Shown: positions 1,831 through 63,296 of the stretch, in pieces
Numbering within the stretch: the first letter of the stretch is position 1
Layout: every line of letters begins with the position of its first letter
Virus record (IMG/VR): IMGVR_UViG_3300043028_000007
Location: 67,899 to 131,898 of that record
Direction: 5' to 3' (one strand)
DNA length: 64,000 nt
Source of the DNA: a virus
Made by a program: the position numbers and the translations under genes
The notes under the pieces: generated by a model
Database searches by the model: none
What the model saw: only the letters and a program-made list of their open reading frames with translations
What the model was told of the DNA's origin: nothing

Positions 1831-2973
1831 TTAATTTTCCATAATATCTATTATCATCTCATCGACTTTTTCGAATATTCTTTGTAATATACCAACTCTA
1901 AATACAGAAGTTACTTTCCTATTATTGATGCTGTAACATCCGAATACTCCTTCTACTTCTATTCCATCTGTAGTCTGTATCTTTTCATCAAAAACATTAG
2001 CTACTACACTTTTAAGCGAGCTATCGAATACTACTTTATCTCCCACACCACAGGTAATTTCCTCTGTAATATAGAAAAAGAATGCTACTGTATCTTCGTC
2101 AAATTCTATACCTTTTAATTTAGTTCCTTTAGGCACTATATTTGGTTTAGGATATTCATTTTCTCTTCCAATAGATTTTGCATAATTACTTTTTTGTAAT
2201 TTCTCTTTATTAGCTTCATTTACAAGCTTAGCTAAGCTAGGAGACATCTCTTCAATGGGACAACTATAATAAACTTCTATTTTACTAATATACCCACTGT
2301 TCTTAGCTCTGGGCATTTTCTTATTTATTTCTAGAAGATATTCATAACTTTCTTCATTATCCATAATACTTAAGTCACTTATATCTTCATCTTCTATAAC
2401 ACATATATAGTCAGTATTTTTTATATACTGATTAAGTTTAGCCATCTCATACACTTTGGTATTTTTAGAGAGCTTTATTGCTCTAAGATGAGTTGGTTTC
2501 ATAGATAATTTGTCACCAAGTTCTTTACATATACCAGAACTATCTTCTATGGTATCGTCATTATCTATTAAAGCTATATTGGCATGTACACCATGTTTCC
2601 ACATAACCTGTTTACTATCATTGTCTTTTACAAAGAATCCCGGGTTATATGCAACTATATCGCCACGCTTTATATTTTCATTTAACTTAACGTTTAGTTC
2701 TATTTTCTGGTCAAGATATAGACCACCTACAGAACCTTGTTCAGTTCCAAATTTGATTATATCTGTTTCACCATTTTTATACTTGATAGTGACTAACTTG
2801 AGTTTGTCATTTATATCTATTACCTTACCATCATCCTTTGCTGGAGATGCAAACATAGGTCCAGATAGATGAGGTAGAACTAATTCATATCCAGTTCTTA
2901 CTCTAGATACCTCTCCATTATCACAAGGAACATGATGGGAAAGCTGTATATTGATAAAGTTGATTCTTTTTGG
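1831..2973 (-). CDS. rpoB: virion RNA polymerase beta subunit (phiKZ gp178-like), exon 2
   Basis: Begins PKRINFINIQLSH and contains RpoB motifs VRTGYE, TIEDSSGI, GDKVVF and SINNR. It joins in frame to exon 1 (HDD|PKR) after intron removal. Confidence 0.9.
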   Translation of the reverse strand, partial: PKRINFINIQLSHHVPCDNGEVSRVRTGYELVLPHLSGPMFASPAKDDGKVIDINDKLKLVTIKYKNGETDIIKFGTEQGSVGGLYLDQKIELNVKLNENIKRGDIVAYNPGFFVKDNDSKQVMWKHGVHANIALIDNDDTIEDSSGICKELGDKLSMKPTHLRAIKLSKNTKVYEMAKLNQYIKNTDYICVIEDEDISDLSIMDNEESYEYLLEINKKMPRAKNSGYISKIEVYYSCPIEEMSPSLAKLVNEANKEKLQKSNYAKSIGRENEYPKPNIVPKGTKLKGIEFDEDTVAFFFYITEEITCGVGDKVVFDSSLKSVVANVFDEKIQTTDGIEVEGVFGCYSINNRKVTSVFRVGILQRIFEKVDEMIIDIMEN

Positions 2974-3127
2974 CAATGTGTTCAGATTTGTTCAGTAGAC
3001 AAATCCCGTATATTTAAATACTGCTTTAGATTTCTCTAAAGATCAGACTATATCTTCACCATTTAAGGTGTCTCCCATTTCCCAAACCTTTGTTCGGTAC
3101 TGGCTGATAAGGCCATAGTCGTTGAAC

Positions 3128-3652
3128 TTAGGAATTTATAACGTAATTGAACTCAGTCTTTTTTTCGTTTAAGTATTCTTTGGCTAATCTAAAGGCTTTA
3201 TTTTTACCTAGCTTATTTATGTTAAACTGCTTAGTAATTCTTTTACCTTCATTATTAGTCAAAGATACTCTATAATACTCGTAACTACCATTTTTCCTAT
3301 ACGCTATACCTACAACACCAGTATTATTTCTATTAAACTTGTGTCTATTTCTAGCATTTAGTGAAGCAGTAATAAATCTTAAATTACATTTCCTATTATC
3401 TAATGTATTACCATTTATATGGTCTACATAAAACTTAGTGTTTGTCTCTACATTAAGTATAATAGAAGCAATAGATTTACCGTATTTTTTTGCTTGGTAG
3501 GCGTATCCAGTATTAGATACTCTTATTTTACCAATTTTAGCTAAGTCCTCGGTATCTACCTTCACAATATGGCAATATATGTTACGATTATTATTACTTT
3601 TGACTTTTATTTCTGTGTATCCATTACACATTTTTAATTCATTTATTAACAT
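3128..3652 (-). CDS. intron-encoded HNH homing endonuclease with C-terminal AP2-like DNA-binding domain
   Basis: HNH motif VDHINGNTLDNRKCNLR...N.RN followed by NNTGVVGI...KQFNINKLG..KAFRLA (AP2-like). It lies between intron elements Q and R (P6 loop). Confidence 0.9.
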   Translation of the reverse strand: MLINELKMCNGYTEIKVKSNNNRNIYCHIVKVDTEDLAKIGKIRVSNTGYAYQAKKYGKSIASIILNVETNTKFYVDHINGNTLDNRKCNLRFITASLNARNRHKFNRNNTGVVGIAYRKNGSYEYYRVSLTNNEGKRITKQFNINKLGKNKAFRLAKEYLNEKKTEFNYVINS

Positions 3653-3840
3653 ATCCTCATATCCTTTATGGGGTTTACGTTATCTCATTCCTTTAGCTGC
3701 TGATTTTCCAATTCTCTAACTTTTTAAACCGTCACGCTTACTATTACTAGTTACGTTGTGGTATAGAGACTCTAAGGAGGTTCCAGCAATTAGAGAGAAT
3801 TCCGTCTAGAAGTTTCCTTCTAGTGGGACCCATTGTTTCT

Positions 3841-3962
3841 TTAAAATGGATAATAACCATATTTACAGTTATCGGCAAAAACTTTCTTACCATTCGACTT
3901 TAATCGATTATTTCATAATAACCGGGGAATTTTGCCGATTCCTTCAATTGATTATTTTCCAT
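3841..3962 (-). pseudogene. internally deleted remnant of a second intron ORF (probable homing endonuclease) in the P1 loop
   Basis: ATG start gives MENNQLKESAKFPGYYEIID*, overlapped in a shifted frame by LKSNGKKVFADNCKYGYYPF*. It sits between the two P1 arms (ATTGTTTC / GAAACAAT). Confidence 0.5.
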
Positions 3963-4027
3963 AGTTTATCCTTTCGAGTTATATCGTAAAAGGATAAACT
4001 TTAATTTTATACGAAACAATTTCCTTG

Positions 4028-7000
4028 ATCATCATGTGTCGCTCCAGGCATAAGTGCAGCAGTTACACTTAATGCTTCAGTTGGTTCAACTTTATCTAAA
4101 TCTTCTTTTATACCCAATGTCCCATATAAGCTAGTTATATTTGGATCCATACTAAGATAACCATTGATAGCTACTTTCCCACTATCGGGAACTGCTTCTG
4201 AAACTATACCTACACCATCTTTAGGGAATTGTCTATCTGACATAACGAAAGATTGTGCAGTTCTACCTCCTACTCCAGTAAAAGTAAAGCCAGTTTTTTC
4301 TTTAATAGCATGTACTGGATTTATTTCTTCTACAGCTATAACGGCATTGTCCTGTATGATCCTCTGGAGTACAGCTTCTGGATTTATGGAAAAAGCATTA
4401 TTCTTATTCTTTTTGTTTTTATAGGAAGCAAGGGATCTTGCTATTTCATCATAAAGTATAGAGTTTAATCTACTATAAGACCTAAGTATGTGATTTTTCA
4501 TAGAAGATGGTTCTATATATTCTTCAGTAGTAAGTAATACAGTTGCTCTTATCAGTAGGTCTCTTATATTAGTTGGTTCACCTAAGGTATCTAATATCCC
4601 TATAGTAATAGGATCTAAGAAAGTATCATAAAAAGTATCGATACCGATCATATAATTTGTACTTAATCCTTTTTCAGATAATAGACTAAAATAAGCATCT
4701 TTATTATCTAATTCATTTAGTTCCACTTGATTTAATTTATAGTTAAGTAATCCAGCAACTATTAAACTCTTTTCTAAAGGATACCGATCTATAACGAGAG
4801 TCTTATCTTTAAATCTGATACTGATCTCTGAAGGAGAGGTATCGATTTTCTTACCTTTATCTATAGTTCTGTAATTTATATTAAGATATTTTAAAGTATT
4901 AGTGAATCCAAAACGATATGCGAGCACGAATATAATTGGTATTCTTTTATCAAATATCTTAAGATCAGTCCATTCGCTAACCATAGGTATTCTGACGCTA
5001 GTGTCTGTTTGATCATAGATAAGCTCACATAGTGTTGTCGTATCTTTGATTTCTTTGTTTATCGAATCATAGACCCTAATGTAGTTATCTAAGCCCATAA
5101 ATAAATAATCGTTGTTACCTATCCTACCGCACAGTACACCATGTTCTTTTTCAAGAGATTCGGTTTCTATCTTCTTAATATTTAGTTCATCTCTATTATC
5201 AAAATCAGTAGAGATTATAACTTTGTTTTTAGGTATTTCCAAAGTAGAATAAATTTTTCCTAATTGGGTATATTCATATGGTAATTTTTGTTTATATTCT
5301 CTATTACCTAATGAAGTTTGTATAGTCAGTTTTTCTTCATTTATCTTTTCTATTAGATTTTTTATATATACATTAAAGCTATGGGCTTTAGTTGTATTTC
5401 TTTCAATGAGTGTCTTATAGCTTGCGGCTAAACTAACTCTGGTATCACTTAGTTTACATATTGGCGTATTAATAAACTGAGGCTTCATACGAGATTTGAT
5501 ACCATTTATTTTAAAAGTCCCGTCGGGTTCTATAATGGGCATCTTGGCTGATAAAGTACCTACCTTGCCTTCTTCATTTTCGTATTGGATTTTATAAGTT
5601 CTTATCTTATTTAACTCATCTATTTGATCACTATATTTGAGATCTAAAAGATATAATCCATTCTTATTAAAGTGAGTAACGACTTGGACCAGATGTTTTT
5701 CAAATACTTTTTCCATGTAATATTGGTCGAAATCCATAATAGATGATTTAAGCATCGATTTGTCTAAAACTTTATCATCTAAAAAATCCAATTCTCTTTT
5801 GACTACTGTGGTGTCTATAGGAGTTTCTAATATCTCTTGTATTGTTTTATCGCCTAACTTAATCTCCTTATACTTATTGGCTCGGATCTTTAACCTGTTT
5901 TTTTGAGCAGGAGTTATATTAGGTATCGACTCGATATACTTATCTGCCTCTTTATTTTTTTCTTTTTCGATTTGAACAACTATATCTTCATCAGGTGTTC
6001 TTTCTTTTATTTCATCGATTCTCTTTTTTCTACTCTCATCTATAATGGTATCTGGTAGTTTGTCAGGTAATCCCGGATCACTAGGAGCTATTATAACAGA
6101 GGAACTCTCCTCTTGAGACATTTCTTTCATAGATATTCTAGTCTCCAAATCTAACCCTTCAGACTCTTCATCTACACTTACCTTAAGCATATTGATATAA
6201 TTGATTATTCTAGTAATTAGACTACTCTCACTAGATAATTCCTTAAGTGTTTCTAGATTCAATATAATAGCTTTATTATGAATAGTGAATATGAAGTTGG
6301 TTTTAGGATAATGAGCTTTAGGCAAATAAGAAAATACAGACTTAAGTTTAGCCTTATCTGATAAGAGAGCTAATAGATGACATATAAGATAAAATGTATA
6401 ATCATCATATTTAGTTAACTCATTACTCATTTCTTCTGAGATAATCTTTAGATACTTGTCTCGATTATAGATAGTTTCTATTAAAGGTATTTCTATGTAC
6501 TGTGAGAACTCCAATGGGATGCTAGAGATATTCTTAATTATGGATTTTAGTATAACCAAGAATCTCTTATATTCTGAAAATCGTCCAAGTACCTTCGTAT
6601 TCCATAGAGGGTTATGATTAATGACTTTCTCATAATTAGTTTTATCATAGAGATCAGTTAACTTATCTATAGGTTTGATGAATGATCTATATTCTTTTGT
6701 AAATTCACGTATATTTTTTTCTACTAGAGTAGTTCTATATATGAAGCTTTCTTTATCATATATTTTGTCTTGTTTATTGATAATATCCGTATTATGATAA
6801 ATAAACCCTTTTCTCTTACTGTTATTTAGAAAAACATTTTGAGTTATCATAGGGGTATCTTGTACATTTAAAGTCTTTATATTGTCTAAAAGATGAAGTA
6901 TACTTCTTTTAGGCAATATTATGTCGTTATCTAATGTTACTATTTTACTTCCTATATCAGATTTACGAAAACTGATATAATTTCGTTTAAATTGATCTTC

Positions 7001-7033
7001 AGTAATATGCTCTAAAGCAGAAATTAATTCCAT
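4028..7033 (-). CDS. rpoB: virion RNA polymerase beta subunit (phiKZ gp178-like), exon 1
   Basis: Motifs MPIIEPDGTFKING, TFTGVGGR, GIVSEAVPDSGKVA and LMPGATHDD. The last 7 codons of the ORF-track call are intron sequence. Confidence 0.9.
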
Positions 7034-50984: not shown

Positions 50985-52133
50985 TTATAATGGATCACCT
51001 TTGCTGTTTGGCATAATGCTTTGCTCTACTAAAGGCATTACGCCATTTATAATGCCAGGAACACTAACTCTATCTTGACCATCTATACCTTTTATTGTAT
51101 CGACTAATAGTTGTATAGCCTGACTTAATTGTTCCCATGCTAATAGAGTTCTATTGTTTGCTCCTCCATTGCCTTTATCTGGCACTGAATTAGAAGGATT
51201 GCCAGAACCATTAGATAATTCCACCGTAGCTGGTACATACGGTGTACCTACAGGACCTATAGACCTAGCCATAGCTTGTGATATAGAAGATATTAATGTG
51301 CCGGGTATTTTTACATCTCCATTTAGACCGATAGTCAATGCTTCAGCTACAAAGTTTTTAGTTATATTACTTATACCTTCACCTGCTTCTTGATATAGTA
51401 CCTCTTCTAATATCTGGGACATATTAGGAGCATTAACTAGTATCTGTCTACCAGCTTTTATAACCAAATCTCTTGGTGCGGCAAGAAGTATGTCTTTGTC
51501 ATTTAAATCGACTATTGAGTCAGATGAATTCTTTAACATAATCCTAGGTACATCCGATTCTAACCATATTTCATTACCTATGTCGTCCTGTAACGTAGCC
51601 GTGTTATTTTTAGCATCTATCTTAAAATGATATTTGTATTTCTCACCATCTGATTTAGAAGTAGCTACAGTTATAGCTTTGTCATACAAAGTATCTAATT
51701 CGATATAATAGGTATTGTCCTTATCCAGTATTTTAACGGTCCTCTGATCATTGGCAACACAAATACGCCAATGTTCGGTTTTTCTAAGATTATCGTCTCT
51801 ACCAGCAGGGTACCAATAGTATTCATCAGTATCAGCGTATTGGAATAATAATACCTGCTCATCTTTTACTATATCCGGAGGACCAGACCTGTTAGTCATA
51901 AAATCGAAATAACTCGCTTCGATAACGTTAGTTACTTTTACTGAATCATTGATATTCTTACCGTTTCTTCTATCATAAATAGATATAATGAATAAACTAT
52001 CACTAGGCACGTGGTTGTCTTCATACGGTAATATTTCAGGACAAAATACTTTTATATCTCGTGACCCATGAACTTTATCTTCTGCTACAATTCCCCAATA
52101 TATTGTAAATTTTCCTTTCTTATCATAACTCAT
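50985..52133 (-). CDS. baseplate hub/spike-like protein (gp5/VgrG OB-fold plus beta-helix-like)
   Basis: GIVAEDK...IKVFCPE...PPDIVKDEQV...YYW (OB-fold-like), followed by beta-strand repeats such as TLQDDIGNEIWLES. Confidence 0.6.
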   Translation of the reverse strand: MSYDKKGKFTIYWGIVAEDKVHGSRDIKVFCPEILPYEDNHVPSDSLFIISIYDRRNGKNINDSVKVTNVIEASYFDFMTNRSGPPDIVKDEQVLLFQYADTDEYYWYPAGRDDNLRKTEHWRICVANDQRTVKILDKDNTYYIELDTLYDKAITVATSKSDGEKYKYHFKIDAKNNTATLQDDIGNEIWLESDVPRIMLKNSSDSIVDLNDKDILLAAPRDLVIKAGRQILVNAPNMSQILEEVLYQEAGEGISNITKNFVAEALTIGLNGDVKIPGTLISSISQAMARSIGPVGTPYVPATVELSNGSGNPSNSVPDKGNGGANNRTLLAWEQLSQAIQLLVDTIKGIDGQDRVSVPGIINGVMPLVEQSIMPNSKGDPL

Positions 52134-61427: not shown

Positions 61428-61721
61428 TTATATCTTAGCAGCCCAGTATATTGTATCGCATAATTGAGCTGCTTCTTTGATATCCCAGATATGATCATTT
61501 GGGATATCTTCAGTAGGAAGAGGAAAGTACTCCTCTTCTACCTGTACTCCTGGCCATCCATAATTGGCCAGGAGTATACCTTCTTTATTATCAGAGACCA
61601 TTCTCACTATAGTCCCGTGAAAACGATCTCTGAAAAGCTGACGGTTTTTGAGAGCTATATGGTTCCTATGGCAGATGGCCCTCACTTCAAGATCTACCAT
61701 AATGTCATTGTACTTATTCAT
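61428..61721 (-). CDS. hypothetical early protein
   Basis: 97 aa with an AGGAG RBS, overlapping the upstream gene. Confidence 0.7.
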   Translation of the reverse strand: MNKYNDIMVDLEVRAICHRNHIALKNRQLFRDRFHGTIVRMVSDNKEGILLANYGWPGVQVEEEYFPLPTEDIPNDHIWDIKEAAQLCDTIYWAAKI

Positions 61722-62274
61722 CTTTTCTCCTTTCTTTTATCAAGTCCCATACTTGATAAAAGTCTACATCGAGCTCCGGTAATCCAGAGCTCTGGAACTC
61801 TGGGTGCTCGATGTAAGTACACCAATTATCCTCTGCCCAGAGGATCATTTCCCTGAGCAATTCTAGTTGATCTAGAGAAAGCGAGGATAAACTTTCTCTA
61901 GCTTTATTATCAGAGGCATTGTGTAATTCTTCTGCCTCTTTCATTTCAGCTTCGTATCTCTCAACGATCGGAGTACAAAGCTCAAGAACCTCTTCATGTG
62001 TTAATCTGAAGAGGTTCTTTAGATTGTCTCCTATAGCTGGTATATAATATTCCAGAGATATATACCAGCTATAGGTCTTGATCGCTTCTTCCATGTTACC
62101 ATCTTTGAATGAGGAAGCGATCATTTCCATCATTCTTAGATTATTATCTGTTAAGTCTTTCAGACGATCTATTTGTTCCCATTTCTGATCGTCTGAAAGA
62201 CCTTTGTGGTAAAAGCATCGGAGAAGGTCGTCGTACATATGACCTCCTCCGGAACCTGCGTGTATCCAACCCAT
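61714..62274 (-). CDS. hypothetical early protein
   Basis: 186 aa with an AGGAG RBS. Confidence 0.75.
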   Translation of the reverse strand: MGWIHAGSGGGHMYDDLLRCFYHKGLSDDQKWEQIDRLKDLTDNNLRMMEMIASSFKDGNMEEAIKTYSWYISLEYYIPAIGDNLKNLFRLTHEEVLELCTPIVERYEAEMKEAEELHNASDNKARESLSSLSLDQLELLREMILWAEDNWCTYIEHPEFQSSGLPELDVDFYQVWDLIKERRKDE

Positions 62275-62311: not shown

Positions 62312-62332
62312 GGGAGTCTGTAATAGACTCCC
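62312..62332 (-). terminator. intrinsic terminator
   Basis: GGGAGTCT-gtaat-AGACTCCC plus a T-run on the minus strand. Confidence 0.7.
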
Positions 62333-62430: not shown

Positions 62431-62739
62431 CTACTGAACGAAACCAGGGACAGACATTACATGACCCTGTTCGTTTCTCTGGCAGTCAGGATGACCAGTA
62501 GCCGGAGCTACTACATCATCTCTAGAACCTGCTAGAGCAGATAGCACCATAGCCGATACGACATAACGTACGCCAGGCTGAGGTTCGGGAAGATTTTGAA
62601 CTTCTCCGAAAACCTGACGACATACGTCGTTATCGAACTCAGAGAACGATGCCTGTACTCTGGCAACTTGACCAGAAGCAGGTAGCTCTCTGCCGTCATT
62701 TAGACGTAGTGCATGAGGAGTAAGATTTACATAATCCAT
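62431..62739 (-). CDS. conserved hypothetical protein (NLTPH...LPEP...YVVS family)
   Basis: 102 aa with an AGGAGG RBS; motifs VNLTPH, PASG.VARV, LPEP..G..YVVS, R.DVVAP are typical of a widespread uncharacterised phage/bacterial family. Confidence 0.8.
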   Translation of the reverse strand: MDYVNLTPHALRLNDGRELPASGQVARVQASFSEFDNDVCRQVFGEVQNLPEPQPGVRYVVSAMVLSALAGSRDDVVAPATGHPDCQRNEQGHVMSVPGFVQ

Positions 62740-62754
62740 GTATGCAAATCCTCC

Positions 62755-63200
62755 TTATAATAAGTTAACTGAGTCTCTATGCTCAGCAATCCTCTCGAAG
62801 CGAGGCATAACTTATTAAATGAATAGGCGTAGCGGCTCTGCCCCACTCTTTCAGATAATGCGTTATCGATGATATTACTATCAGTCTTACCGATTATCCA
62901 CCTATCTATGGACCTTGAATTAACTTATGTACTCCGCGTCGGCCCCAGGACTGGTCTCTTCACCCCGTACCGATTTTGCGTCCATGGTTATCCTGCTCTG
63001 TCTATCCAGGCTTCAAGCAGTTCTTTTCCACTCCATGGAATGAGAGTCTCTATGTATGTCAATATTTGGACTCTGTCAGTTAGTATTTATAGTGCCAACT
63101 AATAGGGATCTCCGGTACTAGGTTCTATTATATATACATACAAATATCATAATAGTTCCCGAAGATATATTTGGTGGAATTTGACACTAATAGAATAAAC
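62755..63200 (-). ncRNA. candidate long structured non-coding RNA or 5' leader
   Basis: About 450 nt with no credible ORF between an early promoter and the next RBS. It is GC-richer than the genome and has many nested inverted repeats. The family was not recognised. Confidence 0.45.
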
Positions 63201-63206
63201 CATAAT

Positions 63207-63224
63207 AGTAATATATATTTAAAA
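63207..63224 (-). promoter_or_regulatory. phiKZ-type early promoter
   Basis: TTTTAAATATATATTACT, identical to the copy at 57980-57997. Confidence 0.75.
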
Positions 63225-63255
63225 TAATACGAAATACATCCAATACAAAAAATAA

Positions 63256-63280
63256 ACATATGCCCTTATTGGGCATATGT
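63256..63280 (-). terminator. intrinsic terminator
   Basis: ACATATGCCC-ttatt-GGGCATATGT plus a T-run. Confidence 0.75.
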
Positions 63281-63296
63281 AATATTCTTTATCTAT

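Follow-up and report, generated by a model that had tools for sequence, protein, structure and literature searches.

A partial type III-B CRISPR repeat in the leader of a ring nuclease gene in an uncultured oil-field giant phage: a candidate RNA and protein anti-CRISPR pair

The locus and its setting

The window that we analysed is a stretch of 64,000 nt from a viral contig (IMG/VR record IMGVR_UViG_3300043028_000007, positions 67,899 to 131,898), and all positions below are those of the window unless otherwise indicated. The contig is 150,238 nt long, has a GC content of 32% and encodes split RNA polymerase subunits. The closest cultured relatives of these subunits are those of phiKZ-like phages, at 23–25% identity. 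Near the right end of the window there is a leader followed by the gene for a 102-aa protein with the motif NLTPH (Table 1), and this stretch is also present in oil-field metagenome runs.

Table 1. Features of the leader-crn4 unit and of the sites connected with it.
Feature	Position	Strand	Basis or remark
Intrinsic terminator after the 203-aa gene upstream, bounding the unit on its 5' side	63256..63280	-	terminator prediction
AT-rich promoter motif recurring in the phage	63205..63224	-	12 genome copies, blast self-hits
Non-coding leader of the crn4 transcript (putative start site)	62740..63204	-	no ORF of at least 80 aa; indels in X11
Putative protospacer	63116..63152	+	X6 contig junction; left end estimated from spacer lengths
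Conserved domain closed by TCCATGG/CCATGGA	62981..63039	-	z -2.58; compensatory pair in X11
Three-way junction showing the repeat hairpin and burying the pseudo-handle and spacer-like tract	62758..62817	-	z -3.06
19-nt repeat copy, positions 12-30 of a 35-nt type III-B repeat	62788..62806	-	38.2 bits, E 1e-5
Pseudo 5' handle	62783..62790	-	first 3/8 nt agree with the G302/G186 handle, the rest diverges
Spacer-like tract	62755..62781	-	resembles window 6646-6671 (+), 25/27 columns, two 1-nt gaps
Hairpin over the SD and first codons, AUG in the loop	62716..62755	-	-14.4 kcal/mol, z -3.95
crn4-type ring nuclease gene, 102 aa, NLTPH	62431..62739	-	fold, profile, catalytic residues
Intrinsic terminator closing the crn4 unit	62312..62332	-	terminator prediction
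Site resembled by the spacer-like tract	6646..6671	+	inside the RNA polymerase beta ORF (4007-7033, minus)

The promoter motif (63220-63206) has 12 copies with at most one mismatch across the 150-kb contig, all on the minus strand, and it may be a counterpart of the phiKZ early promoter. The original prediction had placed an early promoter ahead of the region and the NLTPH gene in the same transcript, and we agree with both: the motif is recurrent, a terminator stands just upstream of it, and the gene lies in the same unit as the leader.

The leader had also been described as the longest gene-free stretch of the window and as GC-richer than its surroundings. With ORFs of at least 80 aa the gap (62740-63296, 557 nt) is the longest, the other four gaps of at least 250 nt in the window being 354–499 nt, but at a 60-aa threshold a 77-aa plus-strand ORF fills it. 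Its GC content of 0.40 is above that of the genome (0.32); however, the genes at 61428-62274 equal it (0.40) and crn4 exceeds it (0.48), so the elevation is a trait of the whole island and not of the leader alone. The genes at 61428-62274 (minus) are two orphans of 186 and 97 aa that belong to the same GC-rich island as crn4. A family search and a look-alike search with them yielded nothing usable, and they are possibly further anti-defence genes.

At the other end of the window, the RNA polymerase beta gene (1831-7033, minus) is interrupted by a 354-nt gap and an ORF for an HNH endonuclease, which suggests a mobile intron; no Rfam match reached gathering score. Outside the window, at L280:8807-10414 (minus) and directly upstream of an RNA polymerase beta gene, is a gene for a 535-aa protein that has 309 relatives and no named match in PDB, PHROG or phage records. 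Presumably, by synteny, it is a positional candidate for chimallin.

Folding of the leader and natural variation

The leader is not a single coding frame because a relative, X11, has 1-nt indels in it, and this, with the lack of an ORF of at least 80 aa, bears out its description as non-coding. As for small peptides, four frames in the leader had no PHROG family and gave one phage match, at E 5. A 32-codon open frame (62988-63086) overlaps the TCCATGG/CCATGGA domain; peptide searches with it found no homologue, and reading it by hand we counted two silent changes and one missense change in X11 and a stop-to-stop change in X8, so that this frame may still be coding.

The main claim of the original prediction was that nearly all of the region, about 450 nt, pairs into one dense fold. 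The 11 named stems that we tabulated are where they were said to be, the 5'-most pair TTCTATTA/TAATAGAA is present (read from the sequence only), and CATAGAGACTC does occur twice. The fold as a whole did not hold up against shuffled controls: on the minus strand the region has a z of -0.88 and 18 of 100 shuffles fold as well (the plus strand has a z of -0.60). In sliding windows only the 3' end and the upstream terminator stand out. Three sub-folds, all chosen post hoc, do better: z is -3.95 for the start-codon hairpin, -3.06 for the 3' junction and -2.58 for the TCCATGG/CCATGGA domain. The 3' junction is the three-way junction that had been drawn near the 3' end. Rfam gave nothing near gathering score on the region or the window, and ARAGORN found no tRNA or tmRNA in the region, which matches what had been expected for tRNA and tmRNA signatures.

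Natural variation gives a similar picture. X6, X7 and X8 are near-identical to the window and keep the repeat hairpin described below, and X9 and X10 are near-identical over the small shares that they cover and add no information. X11 is a single contig with a depth of 4.8 that spans 62481-63153 and differs from the window at 45 letters and 16 gap positions. Over 414 nt of its leader we counted 33 listed substitutions, together with 12 small indels. Thirteen of the 33 fall in named stems, against 10.8 expected, so the stems are not depleted of substitutions; by hand, six preserve pairing, six break it and one was realigned as an insertion outside a stem. The indels are located in loops or linkers, but they are clustered. 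The long-range pairing GTACCG/CGGTAC is broken in both X8 and X11. In crn4, 7/7 listed changes of X11 are at third codon positions, and the divergence of the leader (33/414 nt) is about equal to that of these positions (7 of ~86 sites).

One part of the leader, the TCCATGG/CCATGGA domain, fares better. X11 has no changes in a 55-nt block and has one compensatory pair, 63038/62982 (C-G to U-A); by a scan statistic the block is not significant (p 0.23). We conclude that the leader is non-coding with local structure, and that neither z nor variation supports a global fold. Its upstream ~380 nt are mostly loosely folded with one conserved domain and are otherwise unexplained.

Homologues upstream of NLTPH-family genes, to which the original prediction had looked for covariation, did not turn up: none was found at 197 crn4 loci, and the covariation amounts to the one compensatory pair in one relative. 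A blastn search of phage records with the leader gave three chance matches, and scans of viral contigs with leader patterns returned 2, 0, 0, 0 and 27 stretches, none of them homologous. Phage DNA searched for in host genomes had no match at the leader, and the best complementarity of the leader to host genes had an E of 0.1, in coding context. The pairing of this leader with crn4 thus appears to be lineage-specific so far.

A solitary repeat copy in a predicted three-way junction

The last ~70 nt of the leader contain a copy of a CRISPR repeat, which favours the earlier guess of a decoy-like RNA. The 19-nt copy is identical to positions 12-30 of the 35-nt repeat of three genomes (G302, G186 and G463), and it contains the full 4-bp repeat hairpin (62805-62791) plus three letters of the handle. 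When we compared the repeat with the phage genome there was one strong match, 19/19 nt, the next best being 11 nt. The copy is solitary in 150 kb, intergenic, in crRNA sense and behind the promoter. We found no CRISPR array in the phage genome and no cas genes among the window proteins scanned, and the 46-nt repeat region had no matches in plasmids. We rejected a decayed multi-repeat array as its source because the second-best repeat match in the leader is at chance level (33% of shuffles). A weaker, gapped 17/19 match to the 5' half of the repeat lies at about 51900-51940 (plus), antisense within a baseplate gene, and is probably due to chance.

The Rfam-negative leader nonetheless matches a known kind of element, the solitary repeat unit. 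By our own blastn-short settings the copy scores 38.2 bits, below the SRUFinder cut-off of 41.1 bits. It misses the operational filter of that tool, and on its sequence we would file the element as Racr-like and not as a Racr member.

In the predicted fold of the full leader, the repeat hairpin, which is the same hairpin as in the host repeat, has pair probabilities of 0.90-0.91. The outer stem of the junction is intact in X11 after realigning indels by eye. The repeat hairpin of X11 has its terminal C-G pair changed to A.A and one loop base missing, so a perfect repeat hairpin is not conserved across relatives. The host of X11 may have a different repeat; alternatively, the element may be in decay.

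Cas6 cuts at the base of the repeat hairpin and leaves an 8-nt 5' handle. By this rule the predicted cut falls between 62791 and 62790, and the crn4 AUG follows 51 nt further on. The intact 8-nt handle of a functional type III crRNA is absent, with 3/8 nt agreeing, and five leading nt agree with the variant repeat of another genome (G124).

The tract that follows resembles the antisense of the mRNA for the phage's own RNA polymerase beta subunit, and it is the best-scoring spot along the leader. Five of 2000 shuffles score as well, for a match that was noticed after the fact. The tract has no target in three host genomes, and a 17-mer of it has 27 viral matches, none of which extends or is inside a polymerase gene. 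A tract of this kind after the repeat suggests a captured repeat-spacer unit.

Host arrays and the X6 junction

We searched 301 genomes of the phylum of G001 (a Deltaproteobacteria MAG) with the window's own 18-mer as the query. Exact arrays were found in two genomes, with 53 copies in G302 and 19 in G186, and G124 has an array that matches the 18-mer with two mismatches. No arrays with the 18-mer were found in 151 genomes of another phylum. The repeat is matched in 3 of 81 relatives of G186 and in 3 of 401 genomes of its class, one of the latter with a variant array. A locus in G463 (L252, G463:C34:132506-132540) has a leader and a single repeat beside an insertion-sequence-like transposase pair, with no cas10 match, and is apparently a collapsed array.

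The arrays belong with type III-B genes. One array of G302 is in a locus with cas10 (HD and GGDD motifs), cmr1, cas6, csx20, cas1/2 and a CARF-deaminase, another adjoins CARF-HEPN and CARF-RelE-like genes, and G186 carries cmr1-6. The arrays beside cas3 in G302 and G186 have other repeats, with no match to the phage longer than 14 nt.

The X6 junction. A 696-nt contig (contig 5) of the oil-field run X6 agrees with the phage as far as 63152, where 28 foreign letters take over, and these are exactly the first 28 nt of the 35-nt host repeat. The last 17 of these letters are also the minus strand of 62806-62790, which is 350 nt away and in the opposite orientation. We judge a 17-nt identity too short to explain a misjoin, given the word lengths that assemblers usually employ. 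Read most simply, the junction means that a host in the X6 sample carries a spacer running from 63152 leftwards, antisense to the minus-strand leader RNA, which is the orientation that type III needs. Real recombination between phage and array is possible as well. As a sequence match, the contig is an independent link between the host repeat and the phage.

None of the 67 spacers of G302 and G186, nor any of 8 from G585, matches the phage, so G302 and G186 show the host group and not the host strain, and the link to the host rests on one contig junction.

The predicted ring nuclease and its start site

The partner protein had been called uncharacterised, and a novel RNA-protein complex had been proposed. 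This idea is not supported, since the sequence and the modelled structure identify the protein as a homologue of the ring nuclease Crn4, with cleavage of cyclic oligoadenylates as its predicted activity. The NLTPH protein has 703 relatives among 717 candidates, and T7, H9, S62, H83 and R88 are invariant in 46 aligned homologues. Aligned to 9sma/9r7b, T7, H9, S62 and R88 correspond to T13, H15, S91 and R112 of Crn4a. The structure model has a pLDDT of 97.5 and its best Foldseek match is 9r7b (E 4.8e-8, TM 0.72); all seven matches at E <0.001 are Crn4. A profile match to 9r7b (E 1.6e-6) and a PADLOC match to Unk_01 (E 8e-16) agree with this. Crn4 is described as degrading cA3, cA4 and, in one subgroup, cA6, with a need for His15 and Arg112, and phage copies have been proposed as anti-CRISPRs (PMC12830947).

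The start hairpin of crn4 is the strongest of the 91 SD-bearing starts, whose median is -3.2 kcal/mol, and it has one G.U to A-U change in X11. The start of the 186-aa gene is the second most occluded of the same 91. The predicted Cas6 cut would free an A/U-rich stretch upstream of the SD, with the unpaired probability rising from 0.14 to 0.75, and would lower the opening cost of the start region from 18.7 to 16.7 kcal/mol, with the SD hairpin staying closed. These model values point weakly to a possible gating of crn4 translation by Cas6 cutting.

Other RNA elements near crn4. RNA elements are frequent neighbours of other crn4 genes. In 4 of 40 hand-picked loci (L122, L124, L144 and L178), an Rfam ribozyme is located no more than 300 nt from crn4. 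The pistol, hammerhead and hatchet ribozymes that we saw near phage crn4 genes are at L122:957-1022, L124:670-725, L144:2317-2383, L178:1901-1962, L132:1153-1217 (which scores below the gathering score) and L156:1-122. In the window, positions 62428-62368 (minus), after the crn4 stop, look hammerhead-like by eye, with a CTGAGGA core, a 7-bp flanking stem and a 7-bp hairpin; the stretch is without stem II, has a non-standard core and a z of -0.05, and has no Rfam match. A motif ATCGG ... TGGCAACAG, which likely contains a pseudoknot, is found 5-35 nt past the crn4 stop in eight loci (L010, L043, L120, L122, L123, L127, L128 and L140) and had no Rfam match in the loci scanned. L003 and L017 have long hairpin-rich stretches 250-700 nt upstream of crn4 that are unrelated in sequence to the leader of the window. 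Repeat-like hairpins are not clearly enriched upstream of crn4, with 5 in 45 kb compared with 74 in 1265 kb.

Interpretation

We lean, by a small margin of belief, towards reading the leader and crn4 as a two-part anti-CRISPR, in which a Racr-like RNA decoy for Cas6 and Cmr is co-transcribed with an anti-type III ring nuclease. The established parts of this reading are the repeat identity, its type III-B context, its position and orientation, and the Crn4 family and residues of the protein. Early transcription from 63204 to 62312 by the phage's own polymerase would be expected from the promoter motif and the terminators. The 3' junction would then expose the repeat hairpin (predicted pair probability 0.9), and the host Cas6, if it follows the general rule, would cleave at the base of this hairpin, 51 nt upstream of the crn4 AUG. 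By analogy with RacrIF1 of type I-F, the cut product, with its defective handle and folded-back tract, may tie up Cas6 and Cmr subunits non-productively. Crn4, probably scarce owing to its occluded start, would by its predicted activity degrade the cA4-type signal that activates the host CARF effectors. The loss of the terminal base pair of the hairpin in X11 is the main evidence against a function. In addition, Cmr loading and trimming of the cut product would destroy the crn4 start site, which counts against the protein half. Also on the negative side are a contiguous match of just 19 of 35 repeat nt, the spacers of G302, G186 and G585 without a match to the phage, the 197 crn4 loci with no homologous leader and the ~380 nt of leader left unexplained.

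A relic is unlikely but the most serious competitor. Here the repeat and a spacer against the phage's own polymerase were captured by recombination with a host array and are now decaying or disarmed in an otherwise ordinary 5' leader, with only Crn4 active. The tract has the orientation of a type III spacer relative to the polymerase beta mRNA, the handle and flanks are degenerate, X11 is without a hairpin base pair, and the leader diverges about as fast as third codon positions. However, the 19 unchanged nt span exactly the Cas6 hairpin while the handle and 5' flank are altered, which is the pattern that PMC10651486 describes for Racrs, and a stable junction presents the copy, which has an anti-type III gene at a distance of 50 nt.

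It is also unlikely, to a similar degree, that the two ideas combine, with a crRNA unit against the phage's own polymerase captured, disarmed through hairpins that enclose handle and seed, and fused to the 5' end of the crn4 mRNA, and with Cas6 both titrated and setting the output of the enzyme. If true, this would be an anti-CRISPR mRNA that senses the immune system under attack.

We give less weight to the repeat as a switch, that is, a Cas6 site that matures the crn4 mRNA or enables its translation only in type III hosts, comparable to the self-cleaving ribozymes that flank crn4 in those four of the 40 hand-picked loci. Among the 91 starts that of crn4 is the most occluded, and the cut would free the A/U-rich stretch, but the opening cost falls by little and the SD hairpin remains closed, and the gene that comes next ranks second in start occlusion although it has no repeat.

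A working guide is more doubtful still. The repeat and tract would be a functional type III crRNA against the polymerase mRNA of related phages or for self-regulation, with Crn4 absorbing the alarm signal. It is true that the tract matches best to an antisense site within a core gene, at 5 of 2000 shuffles, and that viral mini-arrays mostly target related viruses according to PMC11656645. However, the handle agrees at just 3/8 nt, handle and seed are predicted to be folded away, and the two 1-nt gaps break the reading frame, so a full match to a related coding gene is impossible. The searches of host genomes and viral sequences gave this reading no target either, and the polymerase match was seen after the fact.

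Least credible of all is a large ornate non-coding RNA (similar to ROOL and GOLLD) complexed with the 102-aa protein, since the invariant block, the compensatory pair and the placement of indels in X11 are outweighed by a whole-region fold no better than chance, stems without depletion of substitutions, a block at p 0.23, a long-range stem broken twice, covariation at one pair in one relative, no Rfam match and a protein that is an enzyme homologue.

Comparison with known systems

Racrs, racr-acr operons, predicted type III solitary repeats and phage Crn4 are already in print. In our literature search we found no ring nuclease gene whose leader was described as carrying a type III repeat mimic, and no type III Racr reported together with a ring nuclease, although the Cracr supplementary tables may bear on novelty. 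In the main text of PMC10651486 'type III' has 0 occurrences, and its supplement lists predicted III-A and III-B units. A search of that supplement with the 15-nt core in one orientation gave 0 matches. We inspected 15 of its ~28 III-B rows, and the other rows could hold a relative.

The closest likeness of the RNA is to the Racrs (RacrIF1, RacrIC1-AcrIC5). These too are single intergenic copies of a host repeat behind a phage promoter, with the Cas6 hairpin retained, the 5' handle altered and an anti-CRISPR-type gene in the same transcript, and racr-acr bicistrons are documented (PMC10651486). Unlike them, our copy matches type III-B, where the Racr tests in that paper cover I-C, I-E, I-F and V-A; it is incomplete and forms part of a three-way junction within the acr gene's 5' leader, 50 nt from the AUG; and its partner is a predicted second-messenger nuclease.

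Viral CRISPR mini-arrays and Cracr RNAs (PMC11656645; 10.1101/2024.10.29.618823) share a repeat that is followed by a spacer-like tract with an identifiable match. In contrast to these, the window has one repeat, a poor handle and a gapped match to the phage's own gene, whereas the targets described there are a rival virus or a host cas promoter. The Cracr candidates described in 10.1101/2024.10.29.618823 cover V-A and type I only.

The protein is most similar to Crn4b (Unk01; PDB 9r7b; PMC12830947) in its fold (TM 0.72), NLTPH motif, catalytic His and Arg and small size. It differs in having 28% identity, an Ala in place of Arg92 and a PATGHP insertion with an invariant His, and, compared with Crn4b as described in PMC12830947, its gene adjoins a repeat RNA. 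Like AcrIII-1, it would be a phage enzyme that removes the type III alarm signal, by its predicted activity; AcrIII-1 has an unrelated fold and is specific for cA4, whereas Crn4 enzymes additionally cut cA3 (PMC12830947, PMC11656645).

Since transcripts are what it detects, type III CRISPR is described as being among the few systems able to reach phiKZ-like phages (PMC13282480). The locus points to a likely host group for this uncultured giant phage from oil fields, and it indicates that partial repeats scoring under the published cut-off can be of consequence. The cognate repeat, cas6, cmr genes and effectors are identified, which opens a type III Racr to direct testing. The tests of RNA anti-CRISPRs in PMC10651486 concern types I and V, and beside them this locus offers a concrete candidate pair for type III.
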